IMG/VR virus record: IMGVR_UViG_2778261502_000007 | Span: 1-45,005 of that record | Direction: 5' to 3' (one strand) | DNA: 45,005 nt | Source: a virus | Taxonomy: Duplodnaviria > Heunggongvirae > Uroviricota > Caudoviricetes | Shown here: positions 2,835 to 15,787 of the stretch, in pieces | Layout of the letters: every line of letters begins with the position of its first letter | Position numbering within the stretch: the first letter of the stretch is position 1 | Notes under the pieces: generated by a model | Told to the model about the DNA's origin: nothing | What the model saw: the letters and a program-made list of their open reading frames with translations, nothing else | The model's database searches: none | Made by a program: the position numbers and the translations under genes

Positions 2835-3110
2835 TCAGATTTCACCGTTTAATTTCATTGCAATCAGAGTTGCCAGAAATCCGGCTTTTTTTTCTGCGGG
2901 CAGATTCTTTCCGATGTGAACCAGGCACATTTTTGTGACACCTTCATCAAGTGTTTTTACGTTGCCTGATGGACCGTCGATATCAACCACAGTGAATGGG
3001 GTTTCTTTATTTTCTGTTTTAATCACGTAGCCAATGCGCTTTCCTTCCAGATTAACCTCGTGAACAATGTCATCGGTAGTTACAACAGTGGCTTCATAAC
3101 TGGTAATCAT
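2835..3110 (-). CDS. racC: RacC-like small protein (91 aa)
   Basis: Internal ATG of track ORF 2835..3158; product MITSYEATVVTTDDIVHEVNLEGKRIG...; sits between recE and ydaE as in Rac. Confidence 0.6.
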   Translation of the reverse strand: MITSYEATVVTTDDIVHEVNLEGKRIGYVIKTENKETPFTVVDIDGPSGNVKTLDEGVTKMCLVHIGKNLPAEKKAGFLATLIAMKLNGEI

Positions 3111-3184
3111 GTTTTTCTCCTTAATTAAGGTTGAGCGAATCCCTGCCATTGCTGGCATAAATTCAGTTTCGAATAGTCAGTTAA

Positions 3185-3355
3185 TTAAAGTTCGTGTGCC
3201 ATCTGGTCTTTTTCGACACATATTTCACTACAATATTTTTTCATTTCCGTCGTTGGGATAACTCCACGCATGAAATGAAGTGGTCTTTTAATGCTTTTGC
3301 TTTCTTCAACTTCTTTATCGCAAAGGTGGTAAGCACATTTTATTTTCTTAGTCAT
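3185..3355 (-). CDS. ydaE: YdaE-like Cys-rich small protein (56 aa)
   Basis: Hand translation [56 protein letters not shown]; below track size cutoff; start overlaps kilR stop (ATGA). Confidence 0.55.
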   Translation of the reverse strand: MTKKIKCAYHLCDKEVEESKSIKRPLHFMRGVIPTTEMKKYCSEICVEKDQMAHEL

Positions 3356-3576
3356 CACCATGACTCCGCCTTTACAGGTAAACCATCACGACCGAGGAAG
3401 ACTTTGATCATGCAGTCAGTAATGCATGTTTTTGTGGTCAGGCTACGGATATAAAGTTTCCTCTTTTTAATATTATTTGCCGAGGCAATATATGTCCGGC
3501 CTTCATGAAGAACATAATCGCCAGGAGTCACACACTGACGTGGTATTTCATCAGTTCCGAAGTGATGTGCAATCAT
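3355..3576 (-). CDS. kilR: KilR-like division inhibitor (73 aa)
   Basis: Track ORF 3355..3588; second ATG ([15 protein letters not shown]...) has GGAG 7 nt upstream; ends ...PVKAESW. Confidence 0.6.
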
Positions 3577-3921
3577 AATTATCTCCATTTTTACAAATGA
3601 ACTTTGTTGATGCGGCGCCTGGTGCCTCCAGGTGACTGCAACCAGTTAACAATTACAGTCGGCTTTCCCACCCAAACCAATAAGGACTAACATGACTTTT
3701 AACTGTGCCGCGTGCGCTTAGCCGCATTCACCGCATCACAAAATTCACTTTAAAAAGGGCGGACATCAGTCGAACTTCAAGAAAAAACTGATGCCGCCAA
3801 GACTACACACAGCAGTGTTGTTATTCACAACCGGAGGCGCACTCCCACCATTTAAATTTAACAGACAAGACCGACTCTTTATGGATATCGGAAATGCGCC
3901 TTCGTGTTGTATGCCTGTCTT

Positions 3922-3949
3922 TTTACCACTTCAGGCTCGGTGGTATACT
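3922..3949 (+). promoter_or_regulatory. Sigma70-like promoter with extended -10 (TTTACC, 16 nt spacer, TGgTATACT)
   Basis: Motifs read directly, about 33 nt upstream of ATG 3982. Confidence 0.4.
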
Positions 3950-3981
3950 GGAGTTTCCACACAACCAGTAGGGAATTACTT

Positions 3982-4215
3982 ATGCCTATTCAATCTCAAC
4001 ACAAAAATATTGATTATCTTTCCGCCAGATTAGAGGCTACCGCGCTTGTTCTTGAAGAACTTGTTAAACTTCTTACGCCAGAGCAGCGTGAAAAACTGAA
4101 TCTGGCAATTGCCGGGCGTTGCCCAGGCGTGAAAAATGCGTCTCTCAGGAATAGAAATTCTCCCGCATATCAATTATTACAGTTCATCAATGATCGCGTC
4201 GGCTGCAGCGATTAA
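3982..4215 (+). CDS. Hypothetical 77 aa protein at sieB-equivalent position
   Basis: Internal ATG of track ORF 3904..4215 (MPIQSQHKNIDYLSARLEATALVLEEL...); own promoter; convergent with leftward operon. Confidence 0.5.
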   Translation: MPIQSQHKNIDYLSARLEATALVLEELVKLLTPEQREKLNLAIAGRCPGVKNASLRNRNSPAYQLLQFINDRVGCSD

Positions 4216-10549: not shown

Positions 10550-10679
10550 AAACGATTTGCGGGAAAAGGATAGTTAAGTAGAATTGCTGCGGGTGCTTGA
10601 GGCTGTCTGCCTCGGGCATGCCACTGTAAGGCAGACAGAGAAAAGCCCCAGTTAACATTACGCGTCCGGCAAGACGCTT

Positions 10680-10760
10680 AACATTAATCTGAGGCCAATT
10701 TCATGCTTTGCACATGTAGGTTAGCCTCTTACGCGCCGGAAGGCAAGGAGAAGCAGGCTA
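10680..10760 (-). ncRNA. Sok-like antisense RNA (approximate)
   Basis: Inferred from hok family organisation only; boundaries not determined. Confidence 0.3.
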
Positions 10761-10915
10761 TGAAGCAGCAAAAGGCGATGTTAATCGCCCTGATCGTCAT
10801 CTGTTTAACCGTCATAGTGACGGCACTGGTAACGAGGAAAGACCTCTGCGAGGTACGAATCCGAACCGGCCAGACGGAGGTCGCTGTCTTCACAGCTTAC
10901 GAATCTGAGGAGTAA
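10760..10915 (+). CDS. hok: Hok/Gef-family type I toxin (51 aa)
   Basis: MKQQKAMLIALIVICLTVIVTALVTRKDLCEVRIRTGQTEVAVFTAYESEE; in-frame upstream leader from 10703; structured 5' region with 9 bp inverted repeat CTGTCTGCC...GGCAGACAG. Confidence 0.85.
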   Translation: MKQQKAMLIALIVICLTVIVTALVTRKDLCEVRIRTGQTEVAVFTAYESEE

Positions 10916-11981: not shown

Positions 11982-12271
11982 TGGCAGATTTACGTAAAGC
12001 GGCGCGGGGCCAGATGTGTCAGGTCAGAATTCCTGGGTACTGCAATCACAATCCCGAAACTTCCGTGCTGGCGGATTACAGACTGGCGGGGACGTGTGGA
12101 ACAGCGACAAAGCCACACGATATGCAGGCTGCAATTGCCTGTAGCTCATGCCACGATTTAATCGACGGGAGAGTAAAAACCAGCGATTACACCAAAGAAG
12201 AATTACGCCTGATGCATGCAGAAGGTGTTTTTCGCACACAAGAAATCTGGAGAAAGGAAGGTTATTTATGA
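11978..12271 (+). CDS. YbcO-like Cys-rich protein (DUF1364-like)
   Basis: MMADLRKAARGQMCQVRIPGYCNHNPETSVLA... with several Cys/His; ATGA overlap with Q gene. Confidence 0.5.
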   Translation: MMADLRKAARGQMCQVRIPGYCNHNPETSVLADYRLAGTCGTATKPHDMQAAIACSSCHDLIDGRVKTSDYTKEELRLMHAEGVFRTQEIWRKEGYL

Positions 12272-12819
12272 TTTACCCAACAAATACAGGAAAAAGCGGG
12301 GAACACCTTCGTCTCACCACGCTGGAAAGTGTCTGGATTCAGGGAAAACTGCGTATGTGGGGGCGCTGGTCGTATATTGGCGGCGGTAAGACGGGGAATA
12401 TGTTTAACCAGTTGCTGGCATCCAAAAAATTGACGAAAACAGCCATCAATGAAGTTCTGCGCAGGATGAAAAAAGCGGGGATTGATAAGACGGAACTGGA
12501 GGCATTTTTGCGGGAAATGCTCGACGGTAAGCAGAAAAGCTGGTTGTCTCATTGTACTGATGCCGAGGCGTTATGTATTGATCGGGTAATTAGCGAAGTG
12601 CTGGTCGAGTATCCGGGATTAATTAGCATCCTCCGACAACGATATGAAGGGCGGGGAATGAGCAAACTGAAAATGGCAGAGCAGTTAAATGAAAATCATC
12701 CTGACTGGACATTAATTACCTGTCGACGTCGTATCGATCAATGGCTGATGATTGCTGAATTTATGCTTTATAAACCAATGTTCACGGCACAAAAAAAACT
12801 ATTGCAAAGTGAGCAATAA
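12268..12819 (+). CDS. Q-family late antiterminator (183 aa)
   Basis: ATG 12268 after AAGGAAG; ...KLRMWGRWSYIGGG... resembles QuuD-type Q; followed by terminator, promoters and late genes. Confidence 0.55.
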   Translation: MIYPTNTGKSGEHLRLTTLESVWIQGKLRMWGRWSYIGGGKTGNMFNQLLASKKLTKTAINEVLRRMKKAGIDKTELEAFLREMLDGKQKSWLSHCTDAEALCIDRVISEVLVEYPGLISILRQRYEGRGMSKLKMAEQLNENHPDWTLITCRRRIDQWLMIAEFMLYKPMFTAQKKLLQSEQ

Positions 12820-12887
12820 GCTGCTTCAATTCAGTTACGCTTCGCAAAGCTGTATCGCGAGGTTAACCAGAAACGTGAACTTAAAAA

Positions 12888-12910
12888 CCCGCCACTGGCG
12901 GTTTTTTTTA
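12888..12910 (+). terminator. Intrinsic terminator downstream of Q
   Basis: CCGCC-ACT-GGCGG stem followed by T8. Confidence 0.5.
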
Positions 12911-13003
12911 TTCCTGAAGCCTGATTAAAAAATGCGCGATTAAATGGTCGTATAAAATATATTTTGTGTACATTTGTGACTGTTTTTAAATTTATATAAA
13001 AAG

Positions 13004-13072
13004 TTGACAAAATAGAAAACTAAAAATAAATTTACAAAACTTGACGCTGCGATGTATTGCAGTTTTATTATT
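13004..13072 (+). promoter_or_regulatory. Tandem promoter-like elements upstream of tRNAs
   Basis: TTGACA (13004-13009), 17 nt, TAAATT; second TTGACG at 13041 with AT-rich -10. Confidence 0.4.
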
Positions 13073-13141
13073 TAAACGTATTATTTGCCGCAGTTCTTCA
13101 GGGGGGAGTAATTGCGATATATTCCTGTCTGAGGAAATAAT

Positions 13142-13217
<76 letters not shown>

Positions 13218-13220
13218 TAT

Positions 13221-13295
<75 letters not shown>

Positions 13296-13660
13296 GCAAA
13301 ACAAATGAGGTATAGGTTTTTCAGCACTGGCGTTTTTTTCGCGGGAAAGGTCTCGTATATCCTTTATCGCTCTCCCGAATTATAATGGAGACCAGTTATG
13401 ATTTCGGTGCTGTGTTTTTTGATACTATCGGAATAGTGCATTATTGGTGGGATTTTTTTGATGTTTCCTGGCAGGGGCTGATTATGCACTATCCCGATGT
13501 TATTAACATCACAAAATGAGGTGAGCCCCATGTGCGGGGGTGGTTTAAGTGGTTGTTTAGCGGGGAAACTACAGTATCTGATGGTATGTCAGGTATTTCG
13601 GGAGGCACCCGACACCTCACCTATATTATAATAATACTCTTCAGCACTTACTGATTTGAC

Positions 13661-13688
13661 CACCGCCTTAACAGGCGGTTTTTTTTCG
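13661..13688 (+). terminator. Intrinsic terminator
   Basis: CCGCC-TTAACA-GGCGG plus T8. Confidence 0.5.
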
Positions 13689-13859
13689 GTAATTTGCAGA
13701 ATTGTACGCTGAATAAGCATTACATCGTTAAATTTATAACTTATTCCGAATATGCGGTGCTTGCTTATTGTTAGCTTGCTGACATTTCTGTATCTTGCTG
13801 CGCCGCAGGTTTCCCCTGTAACGACGCTTGTATGATGAATCATTTAAACTTTGTAATTT

Positions 13860-13891
13860 GCCAGCCAGTCTCTGGTGGCTGGCTTTTTTTT
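13860..13891 (+). terminator. Intrinsic terminator
   Basis: GCCAGCCA-loop-TGGCTGGC plus T8. Confidence 0.55.
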
Positions 13892-13945
13892 GCAAGGTGT
13901 TCTGATAGTTCTGTTCGTCAGACTGGATTCCCGCAGAACAAAAAG

Positions 13946-14027
13946 CCGTCACTAACTCATTGGGTAAGAGTGCATAACACATATTGTTGTTTTGTGGTGC
14001 GGGGTTCGAGTCCCCGGTGACGGTCCA
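13946..14027 (+). other. tRNA-like element (tRNA remnant or atypical tRNA)
   Basis: Canonical acceptor CCGTCAC/GTGACGG, T-arm CGGGG-TTCGAGT-CCCCG and 3' TCCA, but anticodon arm does not fold canonically. Confidence 0.3.
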
Positions 14028-14054
14028 CTTGTAATGGTAAATATACTTTTAACA

Positions 14055-14077
14055 GGCTCGCTTCGGTGAGCTTTTTG
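14055..14077 (+). terminator. Hairpin with UUCG tetraloop and T-run
   Basis: GGCTCGC-TTCG-GTGAGCT then TTTTT. Confidence 0.4.
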
Positions 14078-14110
14078 TATGAGTTCAATCCGGTTTATAT
14101 TGGCGAAAAA

Positions 14111-14148
14111 GGGCGCGGCTGTCGGATTAAAGCCGCGGGACAAAGTCC
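14111..14148 (+). repeat. Structured motif copy A
   Basis: GCGGCT-GTCGGATTAA-AGCCGC then GGAC-AAA-GTCC; followed by ATG at 14149. Confidence 0.5.
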
Positions 14149-15010
14149 ATGAAGAAGAATAAGTATCTGCCTCCTTCAGGAGACATGTTTATACTACTAA
14201 GCATTTAGAATGGTTTAAATCCTCAGATTAACCTTAATTTCAGATAAGGCTTATTTCATTTTTTCGCGCACACCCGGCGCACATCAAAAACCACATAACC
14301 TTTCAGGGGTGAGCTTACGGGATGATCAGTGTGACTTGAGCTGGTCACTCCGGGCGGAGGCTCATCCACTAAAAGGAAACGTCACGATGTTTGGGATTTT
14401 CAAAAGAAAACCCGTAAGCCCATTGTTGAAATAAAGATGATGGAAAACTACGTGATAATGGGCGGCCGGTGGGTGTTTTCATGTGGCAAGAATCATTTTT
14501 CAGATTATTACAGTTGAAGTGATTTTATTCCTTGTTATTATACACCTGTCTTCTGGGAGAGTTATCTTATTCCCCGATAAGAATCCATATGAAGAGTAAA
14601 AATCGTTCAGGAAACAGGATCGCTGATTTGTAATTGGCTAGTCAGTGGCTGGAATCGCTCTGGCAGTAGATGAGACTCACTTATATTAAGCACTGACGCT
14701 TTATTCGTGGTAAGTTTTCGTAACTGTCGCTTTTTGTTTTGTAATAAAAACAAAACATCACGGTGTTGGTGTTGTTATTTTACAATAGCGGGATGGTGTA
14801 TTTTCGGTAGAAATGTTGTGTTTCTTTGGAGAGTCGGAAATACATCATTCCGGTGTTGTAAATAACACCAAAGAGATGTTTCCCGGTATGAGAGTGGTTT
14901 ACATTGTTGCTTTTGGAACCACAATATCTGGCATAAAGTCAGATATTCAGGGAAGTCCACAACATCTCAATTTCACTACAATAAAAATGATTCATCTTCA
15001 GCATTGTTCA

Positions 15011-15036
15011 ACCGCCGCACTAGGCGGTTTTTTTTG
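15011..15036 (+). terminator. Intrinsic terminator
   Basis: ACCGCC-GCACTA-GGCGGT plus T9. Confidence 0.55.
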
Positions 15037-15120
15037 TGTTGAATTCAAAAAAATACACGGACACTGATAATGTCCGTGTGGCAATGCCATGTAAGTCAAC
15101 GATGAATATGACACAAAAAA

Positions 15121-15157
15121 AACGCGACCGTCGGATTAAGGTCGCTGGACAAAGTCC
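15121..15157 (+). repeat. Structured motif copy B (compensatory stem changes)
   Basis: GCGACC-GTCGGATTAA-GGTCGC then GGAC-AAA-GTCC; followed by GTG at 15158. Confidence 0.5.
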
Positions 15158-15397
15158 GTGAAGCATAACGAATTTCCGTTCCTCCCCCCGTTCGGGAAGT
15201 GCAAAAAGTATATAAATTAATTTTTCTCGTTTAAACAGGAAAGTTAATCTGAATTTCTGGTAATCCTTATTCCCGTACATTAATTCTTCGCTTTTCATAT
15301 CAGACTATGTCACACAAAAGGCATTTGCGGATTCCTTCGATGGGATGTTGTTTTTTACGGGCCGCTGGTGGCCTTTTTTATTTACAGGAGAAAAAGT

Positions 15398-15787
15398 ATG
15401 TCTGAACCCTTATCCGGTTCCGGCACGGCTGCGGCGCTCGGCGGGGCGACGGTATTCGGGCTCTTTACCGGAACGGATTTCGGGATTGTGTTTGGTGCGT
15501 TCGCCGGGGCGTTATTTGTGGCAACGATACCGCAGCAGCTTTCAGCCTGGCGGATAGCGGCGCATTTTCTGGTGTCGTTCATTATCGGCGTGCTGGGGGC
15601 AGAGGTTCTGGCATCCTGGCTGGTCAGGCATACAGAGTTTGACGGTGCACCTGTCGATGCATTGTGTGCAGTGCTGGTGTCAGTGGTGTCGGTGAAGATT
15701 CTGTCGTTCATCCACCAGCAGGATATCGCATCACTGGTGTCCGGCCTGTTCTCCCGCCAGCGGGGTGGGGGAGGCGGCAATGCCTGA
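15398..15787 (+). CDS. Holin-like multi-TM membrane protein (129 aa)
   Basis: ATG 15398 after AGGAG; several Gly/Ala-rich hydrophobic segments; first gene of lysis cassette. Confidence 0.5.
   Translation: MSEPLSGSGTAAALGGATVFGLFTGTDFGIVFGAFAGALFVATIPQQLSAWRIAAHFLVSFIIGVLGAEVLASWLVRHTEFDGAPVDALCAVLVSVVSVKILSFIHQQDIASLVSGLFSRQRGGGGGNA

Follow-up and report, generated by a model that had tools for sequence, protein, structure and literature searches.

A probable small-RNA slot with two tandem, partly decayed gene modules in the late operon of a lambdoid P27-like prophage

The window, by which we mean the whole stretch of 45,005 nt analysed here, contains an interval flanked by Q, two holins and a GH108 endolysin. 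Seven ORFs of 61-92 aa and none longer lie between the tRNA-Gly gene (13221-13295) and the start of the holin gene (15398), so the wording of an earlier note on this DNA, which had seen no convincing ORF over 60 aa, was slightly overstated; its sense holds, as no ORF of at least 60 aa in the interval gave a Pfam or PHROGs match at E ≤ 0.1. A terminator scan of positions 12700-15500 revealed 16 terminator-like sites versus 2.9 ± 1.4 in shuffles, and all four intrinsic terminators listed in that note (near 13661, 13860, 14055 and 15011) were recovered, the site at 14054 with a weak U-tract only. GC-rich hairpins followed by a U-tract are predicted at 13662, 13860, 15010 and 15359 on the plus strand and, by scan and folding, at 15079 and at the ends of both minus-strand sRNA genes on the minus strand. 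The same arrangement recurs in independent viral contigs, one with the whole interval (L115) and two with its second half (L068, L091), and the interval is therefore not an assembly artefact. The features of the region are as follows.

12148-12819, Q gene (DUF1133/Phage_antitermQ; family match)
12889-12909, GC hairpin between an A-run and a U-run (bidirectional terminator), just 3' of Q (terminator scan, repeat analysis)
13004-13032, plus, best sigma-70-like site TTGACA-17-TAAATT, candidate late promoter (10/12 match)
13046-13073, plus, hairpin and U-rich tract 3' of the candidate late promoter (scan, relatives)
13142-13295, plus, genes of tRNA-Thr(UGU) and tRNA-Gly(UCC) (ARAGORN, Rfam)
13296-13340, plus, remnant similar to the tail end of an STnc100-like unit (CAGCACTGGCGTTTTTTT), terminator 5' arm missing (repeat family D3, sequence)
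13456-13686, plus, putative STnc100-family sRNA gene, copy 1, intact, 5' end inferred (Rfam, model R1, covariation)
13662-13679 and U8, plus, terminator (scan)
13735-13892, plus, conserved unit of about 160 nt with a strong terminator at its end (13860-13891) (homologs)
13860-13883 and U8, plus, terminator (scan)
13946-14027, plus, pseudo-tRNA derived from tRNA-Arg (ARAGORN, alignment)
14054-14083, plus, hairpin (14054-14073) and weak U-tract 3' of the pseudo-tRNA (scan)
14106-14184, minus, predicted sRNA gene of about 79 nt, copy 1 (model R2, covariation, folding)
14191-14219, minus, predicted promoter of minus-strand copy 1 (invariant alignment columns)
14387-14448, plus, TerB-family gene stump of 62 nt, codons 1-21 with a frameshift (tblastn, nucleotide comparison with L003)
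14487-14579, plus, weak fragment like the 3' part of an STnc100-like unit, lacking a terminator (R1)
14627-14652, plus, degenerate repeat of the terminator part of the 13735-13892 unit (repeat D6, 81% identity)
14778-15036, plus, putative STnc100-family sRNA gene, copy 2, full length, terminator 15010-15036 (R1)
15010-15029 and U8, plus, terminator (scan)
15045-15079, minus, perfect hairpin and U7, putative back-up terminator 3' of minus-strand copy 2 (scan, z-score)
15115-15200, minus, predicted sRNA gene of about 86 nt, copy 2 (R2, repeat, folding, alignment)
15207-15235, minus, predicted promoter of minus-strand copy 2, TTTAAA-17-TATACT (scan; aligned with the copy 1 promoter)
15359-15380, plus, hairpin (15359-15374) and U6 directly 5' of the holin ribosome-binding site (scan)
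15398-15787, plus, first holin gene (Phage_holin_8), start of the lysis cassette (family match)

On the flanks, the candidate late promoter is conserved only loosely in relatives, and conservation gave no confident position for PR' there. The hairpin at 13046-13073 is maintained by compensatory changes in relatives, and that at 15359-15380 is kept in P27-like phages and E. coli prophages. At the Rfam gathering thresholds only the two tRNAs and sok were recovered; weaker Rfam matches to GcvB, VqmR, Qrr, mir-983 and tmRNA were rejected as terminator or tRNA-arm artefacts.

Copy 1 of the plus-strand pair displays the complete STnc100 architecture, that is, an outer helix round the hairpins P1-P4, one of them the CGGGAGGCACCCG hairpin, and a Rho-independent terminator (13662-13686). 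It aligned with Rfam STnc100 (RF02076) over the full length of the model (positions 1-206) at 28.4 bits (E = 0.0012), below the gathering threshold of 47 bits, and copy 2 was not reported by Rfam. Our own covariance model R1, built from relatives only and excluding the two window copies, scored copy 1 at 157 bits (E = 5e-41, 13515-13696) and copy 2 at 109 bits (E = 5e-28, 14870-15045), flagging non-pairs in the latter. R1 also recovered true STnc100 in EPEC (36 bits, E = 3e-8) and in 933W (E = 0.006), not PasD, so that covariance models detect the window copies and the known family in both directions; MAFFT aligned both copies with bona fide STnc100 and PasD. The consensus of the STnc100-like family comprises 30 pairs, six of which show compensatory changes. 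Copy 2, about 75% identical to SerU-LTIIb, may be non-functional, given its broken P1 and P4 hairpins.

With STnc100 (EcOnc27 of EHEC Sp5/933W) and its relative PasD the window copies share the position, on the late plus strand 3' of Q, tRNAs and cargo, 5' of the lysis genes and convergent with a minus-strand sRNA gene, as well as the size class of about 230 nt, the outer helix, an identical CGGGAGGCACCCG hairpin and a Rho-independent terminator. EcOnc27 is a discrete Hfq-dependent RNA of 235/247 nt in EHEC (Tree et al. 2014, PMC4104026). In comparison, the window subfamily reaches 28 bits against the 47-bit cut-off and shows no BLAST similarity to STnc100, its gene lies directly 3' of tRNA-Thr/tRNA-Gly and not of stx or an esterase, and the single-stranded stretch 5' of the terminator, which contains the seed in PasD, has another sequence here. 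On this combined evidence the two copies are best described as a putative divergent STnc100 subfamily overlooked by Rfam-based annotation.

The duplicated two-hairpin motif described earlier is present at 14106-14159 and 15115-15168 with 80% identity, and the 9 bp perfect hairpin at 15055-15079 is likewise real (z = -3.15). Both are features of the minus strand, a point that the earlier note had missed; the U-tract of the perfect hairpin lies on that strand, making it a minus-strand terminator. Read 5' to 3', minus-strand copy 1 consists of a 5' hairpin, single-stranded AUACUUAUUCUUCUUCAU, a GGAC-UUU-GUCC hairpin and a terminator with U5, preceded by a predicted promoter with a -35 of TTTAAA (14214-14219), a 17-nt spacer and a -10 of TAGTAT (14191-14196). 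Copy 2, with its predicted -10 at 15207-15212, shares the 3' domain of copy 1, differs in the 5' domain and is convergent with STnc100 copy 2. R2, a covariance model of the minus-strand family, matched exactly these two places in the window (106 bits for copy 1, 70 bits for copy 2).

In the alignment of this family, 94.7% of the cells are paired and six pairs change on both sides. None of 500 shuffles reached the observed pairing values, a significance that is overstated because the sequences are related and recombining. The asymmetry between the strands is modest in overall pairing (94.7% on the minus versus 92.5% on the plus strand); U.G pairs, found in 17 of 38 sequences, form on the minus strand only, and U-tracts 3' of the motif hairpins also occur there only. 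The -35 and -10 hexamers are invariant, even with diverging flanks, and a conserved 3' part of 45 nt is joined to a variable 5' part, the RNA ends being predicted. The exact motif was found in at least 115 viral contigs; a pattern scan of genome contigs used a loose pattern and gave mostly chance matches. Among the matches listed for the extended motif with an adjacent GTC, all are Escherichia or Shigella except one contig from a Bacillota metagenome bin (L199). The family had no Rfam match at E ≤ 10 and none to AsxR/AgvB or PasA, and a literature search with the motif sequence found nothing relevant; it appears to be uncatalogued, being contained in none of the libraries searched.

Among 121 occurrences, 61 have the STnc100 motif some 185 nt upstream of the minus-strand one. 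In 933W, STnc100 on the plus strand is convergent with AsxR on the minus strand, and convergent Hfq-bound sRNA pairs 3' of PR' have been described (Tree et al. 2014, PMC4104026); the predicted plus/minus pairing of the window matches these STnc100(EcOnc27)/AsxR pairs of Stx phages (Tree 2014). AsxR and AgvB, anti-sRNAs that sequester a core sRNA (GcvB, FnrS) (Tree et al. 2014), occupy the same kind of place as the genes predicted here: in the cargo ("moron") slot, on the strand antisense to the late operon, and convergent with an sRNA of the STnc100 type. Like AsxR/AgvB/EcOnc03 (RF02703, RF02702), the predicted RNAs would join a variable 5' domain to a conserved 3' domain some 45 nt long, made up of a small hairpin, a terminator and a U-tail. 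They differ in being 79-86 nt long by prediction, with an extra 5' hairpin, versus 51-60 nt, and show no sequence or model similarity: R2 had no match in 933W, and the conserved 3' 42 nt of AsxR/AgvB (...GUAUCUCAUGC..UUGCCCGAACCCAYUCGGGC) is unmatched by, and unrelated to, the minus-strand family. PasA and PasC of EPEC, which in lambdoid prophages are often near terB and tRNA genes, are also minus-strand and just 5' of the holin (Pearl Mizrahi 2021; Zhu, Shabalina & Storz 2026 preprint), whereas their sequence and terminator are unrelated to the family described here; the interval gave no BLAST match to the EPEC PasA, PasC and PasD loci, nor did R2 match the PasA/PasC loci (L006, L008).

Two further plus-strand elements lie between STnc100 copy 1 and minus-strand copy 1. 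Homologs of the 13735-13892 unit, 73-93% identical, occupy the same slot in other prophages; its terminator covaries, the rest lacking support in RNAalifold, and the unit is a candidate sRNA or leader of the tRNA-Arg module. The tRNA-like element reported earlier was called by ARAGORN as tRNA-Tyr(ata) at 13946-14027, with C33 and U37, but stayed below the threshold of the Rfam tRNA model (RF00005), lacking the combination of cloverleaf, canonical 7-nt anticodon loop and at least 29 bits. Compared with tRNA-Arg, the acceptor, D and T arms are retained and the anticodon arm has a new sequence with 5 nt inserted. The pseudo-tRNA aligns with the argN-type tRNA-Arg of the Stx-phage cluster ileZ-argN-argO (933W), which likewise places tRNA genes and several intrinsic terminators between PR' and the cargo/lysis genes; here the functional tRNAs are those for Thr and Gly, and the Arg copy is without its anticodon arm.

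Relatives carry intact terB and DUF3927 in this interval. In the window an intact TerB ORF (about 141 aa) is absent, residues 1-21 alone being left, split over two frames, and the prospect of a pseudogenised ORF, revealed by an intact gene of relatives aligning across the region, was borne out for 62 nt only. Segment 14449-14745 had no match in 5,426 complete E. coli genomes, and R1 scored the fragment of 93 nt within it (14487-14579) at a marginal 14.4 bits (E = 0.026). Such relics, together with the decayed tRNA-Arg, the damaged hairpins of STnc100 copy 2, the truncated terminator remnant at 13296-13340 and the degenerate one at 14627-14652, speak for mostly non-functional debris, left inert when illegitimate recombination destroyed a cargo locus of terB-DUF3927 and tRNA genes. 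We regard this as unlikely for the interval as a whole: in STnc100 copy 1 and both minus-strand copies every helix, terminator and promoter hexamer is still present, dozens of otherwise mosaic prophages conserve these elements through compensatory changes, and about 1.1 kb of the interval is equally free of ORFs in the relatives with intact terB.

Somewhat less probable still is that the structures act in cis on the late transcript, through processing, pausing/antitermination or a leader for holin translation, and are not separate sRNA genes. All elements do lie inside the Q-dependent late transcription unit, the hairpin with U6 stands immediately 5' of the holin ribosome-binding site, and a CCUCC-rich plus-strand stretch opposite minus-strand copy 2 could, speculatively and from reading the sequence, pair with the holin Shine-Dalgarno. 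In the case of processing, the tRNA-like element, which retains its acceptor and T arms, would serve RNase P/Z and the hairpins RNase III/E. The U-tract, wobble pairs and promoter hexamers of the two-hairpin motif are found on the minus strand only, STnc100 is a discrete RNA in EHEC, and the Rfam search found no put-, nut- or qut-like known family. Small proteins encoded by the conserved blocks, such as a plus-strand ORF of 19-32 aa in a type I toxin-antitoxin-like pair, are highly improbable: a start of the form ATG/GTG-AAG-AAG-AAT-AAG faces the unpaired region of the minus-strand RNA exactly, a 32-codon frame ending in INLNFR is kept in some relatives and a hok/sok module exists elsewhere in the window, but the toxin-antitoxin reading was rejected since the frame is unconserved (19 and 20 aa in the window, a 1-nt insertion in L003) while substitutions keep the RNA hairpin and not the peptide, which is not hydrophobic, and the ATG sits within a hairpin and lacks a good Shine-Dalgarno sequence; nor does any ORF of at least 60 aa have a family match.

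We therefore return to the sRNA genes. The earlier note had left the density of RNA structure open between a cluster of small RNAs, antitermination or processing sites, and a decayed cargo locus. The first and the last apply at once, the sRNA cluster on the grounds of STnc100 homology, covariation, conserved promoters and terminators and a convergent layout known from lambdoid prophages, the decayed cargo on those of the terB stump, the pseudo-tRNA-Arg, the sRNA fragments and the damaged second STnc100 copy; dedicated antitermination or processing sites found no support from any test run. The interval is probably the late-operon cargo ("moron")/sRNA slot of a lambdoid P27-like prophage, holding two tandem, partly decayed sRNA-gene modules and no protein cargo. 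That there are two tandem modules had escaped the first description.

Each module would comprise a plus-strand STnc100-family gene of about 230 nt with a strong intrinsic terminator at its end, and a minus-strand sRNA gene of about 80 nt that has a sigma-70 promoter of its own and whose RNA would consist of a 5' hairpin, an unpaired stretch, a small GGAC/GUCC hairpin and a terminator followed by a U-tail. A small hairpin followed by a terminator and U-tail at the 3' end is the usual Hfq-binding module. Module 1 would additionally hold the conserved 160-nt unit and the decayed tRNA-Arg and end with the first 21 terB codons, and module 2 would stand in place of terB and DUF3927, adjoining the holin. 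In the lysogen each sRNA would be transcribed from a promoter of its own or, on the plus strand, possibly be processed out of the tRNA transcript, and the sRNAs would work in trans by way of their variable regions. At least four strong terminators in series on the plus strand would keep the lysis genes silent; upon induction, Q-modified RNA polymerase would read through all of them. Recombination at shared sRNA tails and terminators could have produced the mosaic and its fragments.

The promoter and 3' half of the minus-strand family also adjoin serU in about 99% of complete E. coli genomes. Tentatively, the minus-strand element may represent an uncatalogued prophage family of Hfq-type sRNAs that share the construction of the anti-sRNAs, the 3' handle being constant and the 5' targeting domain exchangeable; a domesticated copy would have become fixed between serU and yodB, where about 99% of E. 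coli would carry it, a reading we regard as possible only. The serU-yodB copy, K-12 included, would in that case keep the -35/-10, the 5' hairpin and the terminator. This relic does not figure among the published sRNAs in the available portions of the Pearl Mizrahi supplements, Tree Table S2 part 5 and EcsR1/2. If the reading is true, it would be an unannotated core-genome sRNA of phage origin, directly testable in K-12.

The layout itself is already known from Shiga-toxin phages; what the comparison adds is a putative divergent STnc100 subfamily and a further predicted antisense sRNA family. Porcine, murine and commensal E. coli also carry predicted convergent sRNA genes of this kind, in prophages that are P27-like and non-Stx. 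For annotation, antisense ORFs placed over these RNAs by PGAP and others would be better left uncalled. Prophage sRNAs of this slot (AsxR, AgvB, PasA-D, STnc100) rewire host sRNA networks and virulence in EHEC/EPEC. If expressed, the RNAs described here would enlarge the known set of phage-borne regulators and offer an example of modular sRNA evolution, in which terminator handles are conserved, 5' domains can be exchanged and recombination takes place at shared tails.

The late region of the window is lambdoid and P27-like, and the region studied, which extends over 2.1 kb from the tRNAs to the first holin, lies among the following features.

Features in and around the interval
12148-12819: Q antiterminator (DUF1133/Phage_antitermQ)
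13142-13295: tRNA-Thr and tRNA-Gly
13456-13686 (+): predicted STnc100-family sRNA gene, copy 1
14106-14184 (-): predicted minus-strand sRNA gene, copy 1
14778-15036 (+): predicted STnc100-family sRNA gene, copy 2
15115-15200 (-): predicted minus-strand sRNA gene, copy 2
from 15398: lysis cassette with two holins (PF16931, PF05449) and a GH108 endolysin

The earlier note had described 13296-15367 as poor in ORFs and rich in RNA structure, and correctly so: every feature it listed was found in the window, the interval holds only seven ORFs (61-92 aa), none with a match in Pfam or PHROGs, and a consensus scan returned 16 terminator-like sites versus 2.9 +/- 1.4 in shuffles. Its leading interpretation, a cluster of small RNAs, was broadly right. 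Two features need correction: the U-tract of the perfect hairpin (15055-15079) is on the minus strand, and the duplicated 54-nt motif (14106-14159, 15115-15168) likewise belongs to that strand. Outside the interval, a sok antitoxin RNA (RF01794, 113.6 bits) lies at 10591-10765 (+), which implies that the nin region, upstream of Q, carries a toxin-antitoxin module of the hok/sok type.

In a permissive Rfam scan, 13492-13691 aligned over the full STnc100 model with 28.4 bits, against a gathering score of 47 (E=0.0012), and in MAFFT alignments both 13480-13695 and 14830-15040 align with genuine STnc100 and the PasD1/PasD2 regions of EPEC, sharing GGUGA...hairpin, a CGGGAGGCACCCG hairpin and a terminator. 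Related loci yielded 40 distinct STnc100-like versions, of which 23 were aligned; the RNAalifold consensus of these has an outer helix around four hairpins, which is the STnc100 architecture, and 6 of its 30 pairs show compensatory changes. A covariance model trained on the relatives, with the window excluded, scored 157 bits at 13515-13696, 109 bits at 14870-15045 (hairpins P1 and P4 being flagged as broken) and a marginal 14.4 bits at a fragment, 14487-14579. It also recovered the real STnc100 of E2348/69 (36 bits, E=3e-8) and that of 933W (16.7 bits, E=0.006), and did not match PasD. The STnc100 subfamily of the window scores under the Rfam threshold. From the tRNA-Gly 3' end to the sRNA, the block is kept as a unit in many prophages; therefore, either a weak promoter (TATAAT at 13381-13386) or processing of the tRNA transcript may generate the 5' end of copy 1. 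G/U-rich runs at 14760-14790 (CACGGTGTTGGTGTTGTTATTTT) and 13406-13422 (GGTGCTGTGTTTTTTG), in the 5' parts of the units, are similar to the R1 seed of GcvB, a likeness that is not significant, the Rfam match to GcvB being 20.6 bits (E=0.11). Public annotations place antisense "hypothetical protein" CDSs over the STnc100-like sRNA (loci L004, 3292-3573, and L002, 4359-4676), probably spurious calls, since the equivalent 84-aa ORF of the window, 13589-13843 (-), has no family match.

In minus-strand orientation, the 54-nt motif consists of GGAC-UUU-GUCC, a GC hairpin of 6-7 bp whose loop is UUAAUCCGAC, and a U-run, a pattern found exactly in 115 IMG/VR contigs. The loci collected, the window and E. 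coli loci among them, give 52 distinct 165-nt versions. In the alignment, TTTAAA is invariant and a 17-nt spacer separates it from a TAnTAT hexamer; after about 7 nt there follow a 5' hairpin, the conserved single-stranded AUACUUAUUCUUCUUCAU, a small hairpin and a terminator. Pair counting shows 94.7% of cells paired and six pairs changed on both sides, values reached by no shuffle, and sliding the partners out of register lowers pairing to 40-54%. At one pair of the 5' hairpin, 17 of the 38 sequences have U.G and 16 have U-A; read on the plus strand, those U.G pairs would become C.A mismatches. In the window, the corresponding covariance model detected two copies and no more (106 and 70 bits). 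Both are minus-strand copies, which have the 3' domain and promoter in common and differ in their 5' domain. The model also matched phage SerU-LTIIb and locus L004, and gave no hit in 933W or in the Pas loci of EPEC. An STnc100 motif is located some 185 nt upstream in 61 of 121 occurrences, and the two genes therefore converge. No Rfam family matched the minus-strand RNA, and the family appears to be uncatalogued.

Among 5,426 complete E. coli genomes, 5,354, including K-12 derivatives, also carry the predicted promoter of this family (-35/-10) and its 45-nt 3' domain between serU and yodB. The 5' hairpin and single-stranded region of this copy (1493-1650 of the K-12-type locus) differ from those of the prophage family; the site has no annotation or Rfam match, and no report of an sRNA at this position was found in the literature. 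The copy could represent a prophage sRNA that has been domesticated, or else an inert relic left at the attachment site serU.

Best coverage of the 2,581-nt query 12820-15400 by phage records was <=27%, and that of 13296-15400 by any complete E. coli genome <=59%. Window positions 13141-14448 show 92% identity to the ETEC1749 prophage, which continues with an intact terB, DUF3927 and the holin; in the window terB ends after 21 codons with a frameshift inside (14387-14448), and the 860 nt that follow (14449-15310) stand in place of terB and DUF3927. Within that stretch, 14778-15300 shares about 75% identity with the region from tRNA to holin in SerU-LTIIb. The interval therefore consists of two tandem modules with their junction inside terB. 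The whole arrangement recurs in one IMG/VR contig (L115) and its second half in two others (L068, L091). About 300 nt, 14449-14745, occur only in three IMG/VR contigs, and the 5,426 complete E. coli genomes gave no match to them; what is recognisable there is a degenerate terminator and, weakly, a fragment of an STnc100 tail.

Between the sRNAs, 13735-13892 is a conserved 160-nt unit ending in a strong terminator, to which covariation is confined; homologs (73-80% identity) fill the same slot in other prophages, and in one of these (L246) the unit is followed by a genuine tRNA-Arg. In its acceptor, D and T arms, the stretch 13946-14027 can be aligned with phage tRNA-Arg(UCU) and 933W argN; the anticodon arm, however, has been rewritten and has gained a 5-nt insertion, which makes the element a pseudo-tRNA. 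The ETEC1749 prophage also has a second decayed tRNA-Arg, unannotated and situated between its tRNA-Ile and tRNA-Thr (L003 2264-2343), and such copies seem to recur in this slot. Two further pieces look like remnants: 13296-13340 of an sRNA tail, and 14627-14652 of the terminator of the 160-nt unit.

This kind of locus is already known. Convergent pairs of Hfq-bound sRNAs were described for the cargo ("moron") slot 3' of PR', where the partners on the minus strand, AsxR, AgvB and EcOnc03, are conserved over the 42 nt at their 3' end and vary at the 5' end, together with EcOnc27 of EHEC, a 235/247-nt RNA whose 247-nt form is destabilised without Hfq (Tree et al. 2014, PMC4104026). By its published probe sequence, EcOnc27 is the EHEC STnc100, and in 933W STnc100 (+) and AsxR (-) directly abut. 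PasA, PasC and PasD occupy the same region, PasD being linked to STnc100 (Zhu, Shabalina and Storz, 2026 preprint). The minus-strand RNA of the window is like AsxR/AgvB, and likewise PasA, in position and design, but different in sequence.

In the lysogen the sRNAs would be expressed and would act in trans; like their reported relatives, they may serve as sponges for other sRNAs or as GcvB-like regulators. Stacked terminators at 13662, 13860, 15010 and 15359 would keep the lysis genes insulated until they are read through by polymerase modified by Q, and those on the minus strand (15079 and those of the two sRNAs) would shield plus-strand genes from antisense transcription. A hairpin with U6 at 15359-15380 (+), 18 nt ahead of the holin start codon and kept in phiP27 and E. 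coli prophages, would be the last terminator or a translational element right at the lysis cassette. SerU-LTIIb carries the tRNA-tRNA/STnc100-like/holin module twice in tandem (1100-2430 and 3030-4130), with the minus-strand sRNA model matching in the first module only (1741-1831; weakly at 1671-1736), which suggests that the slot grows through module duplication, as in the window.
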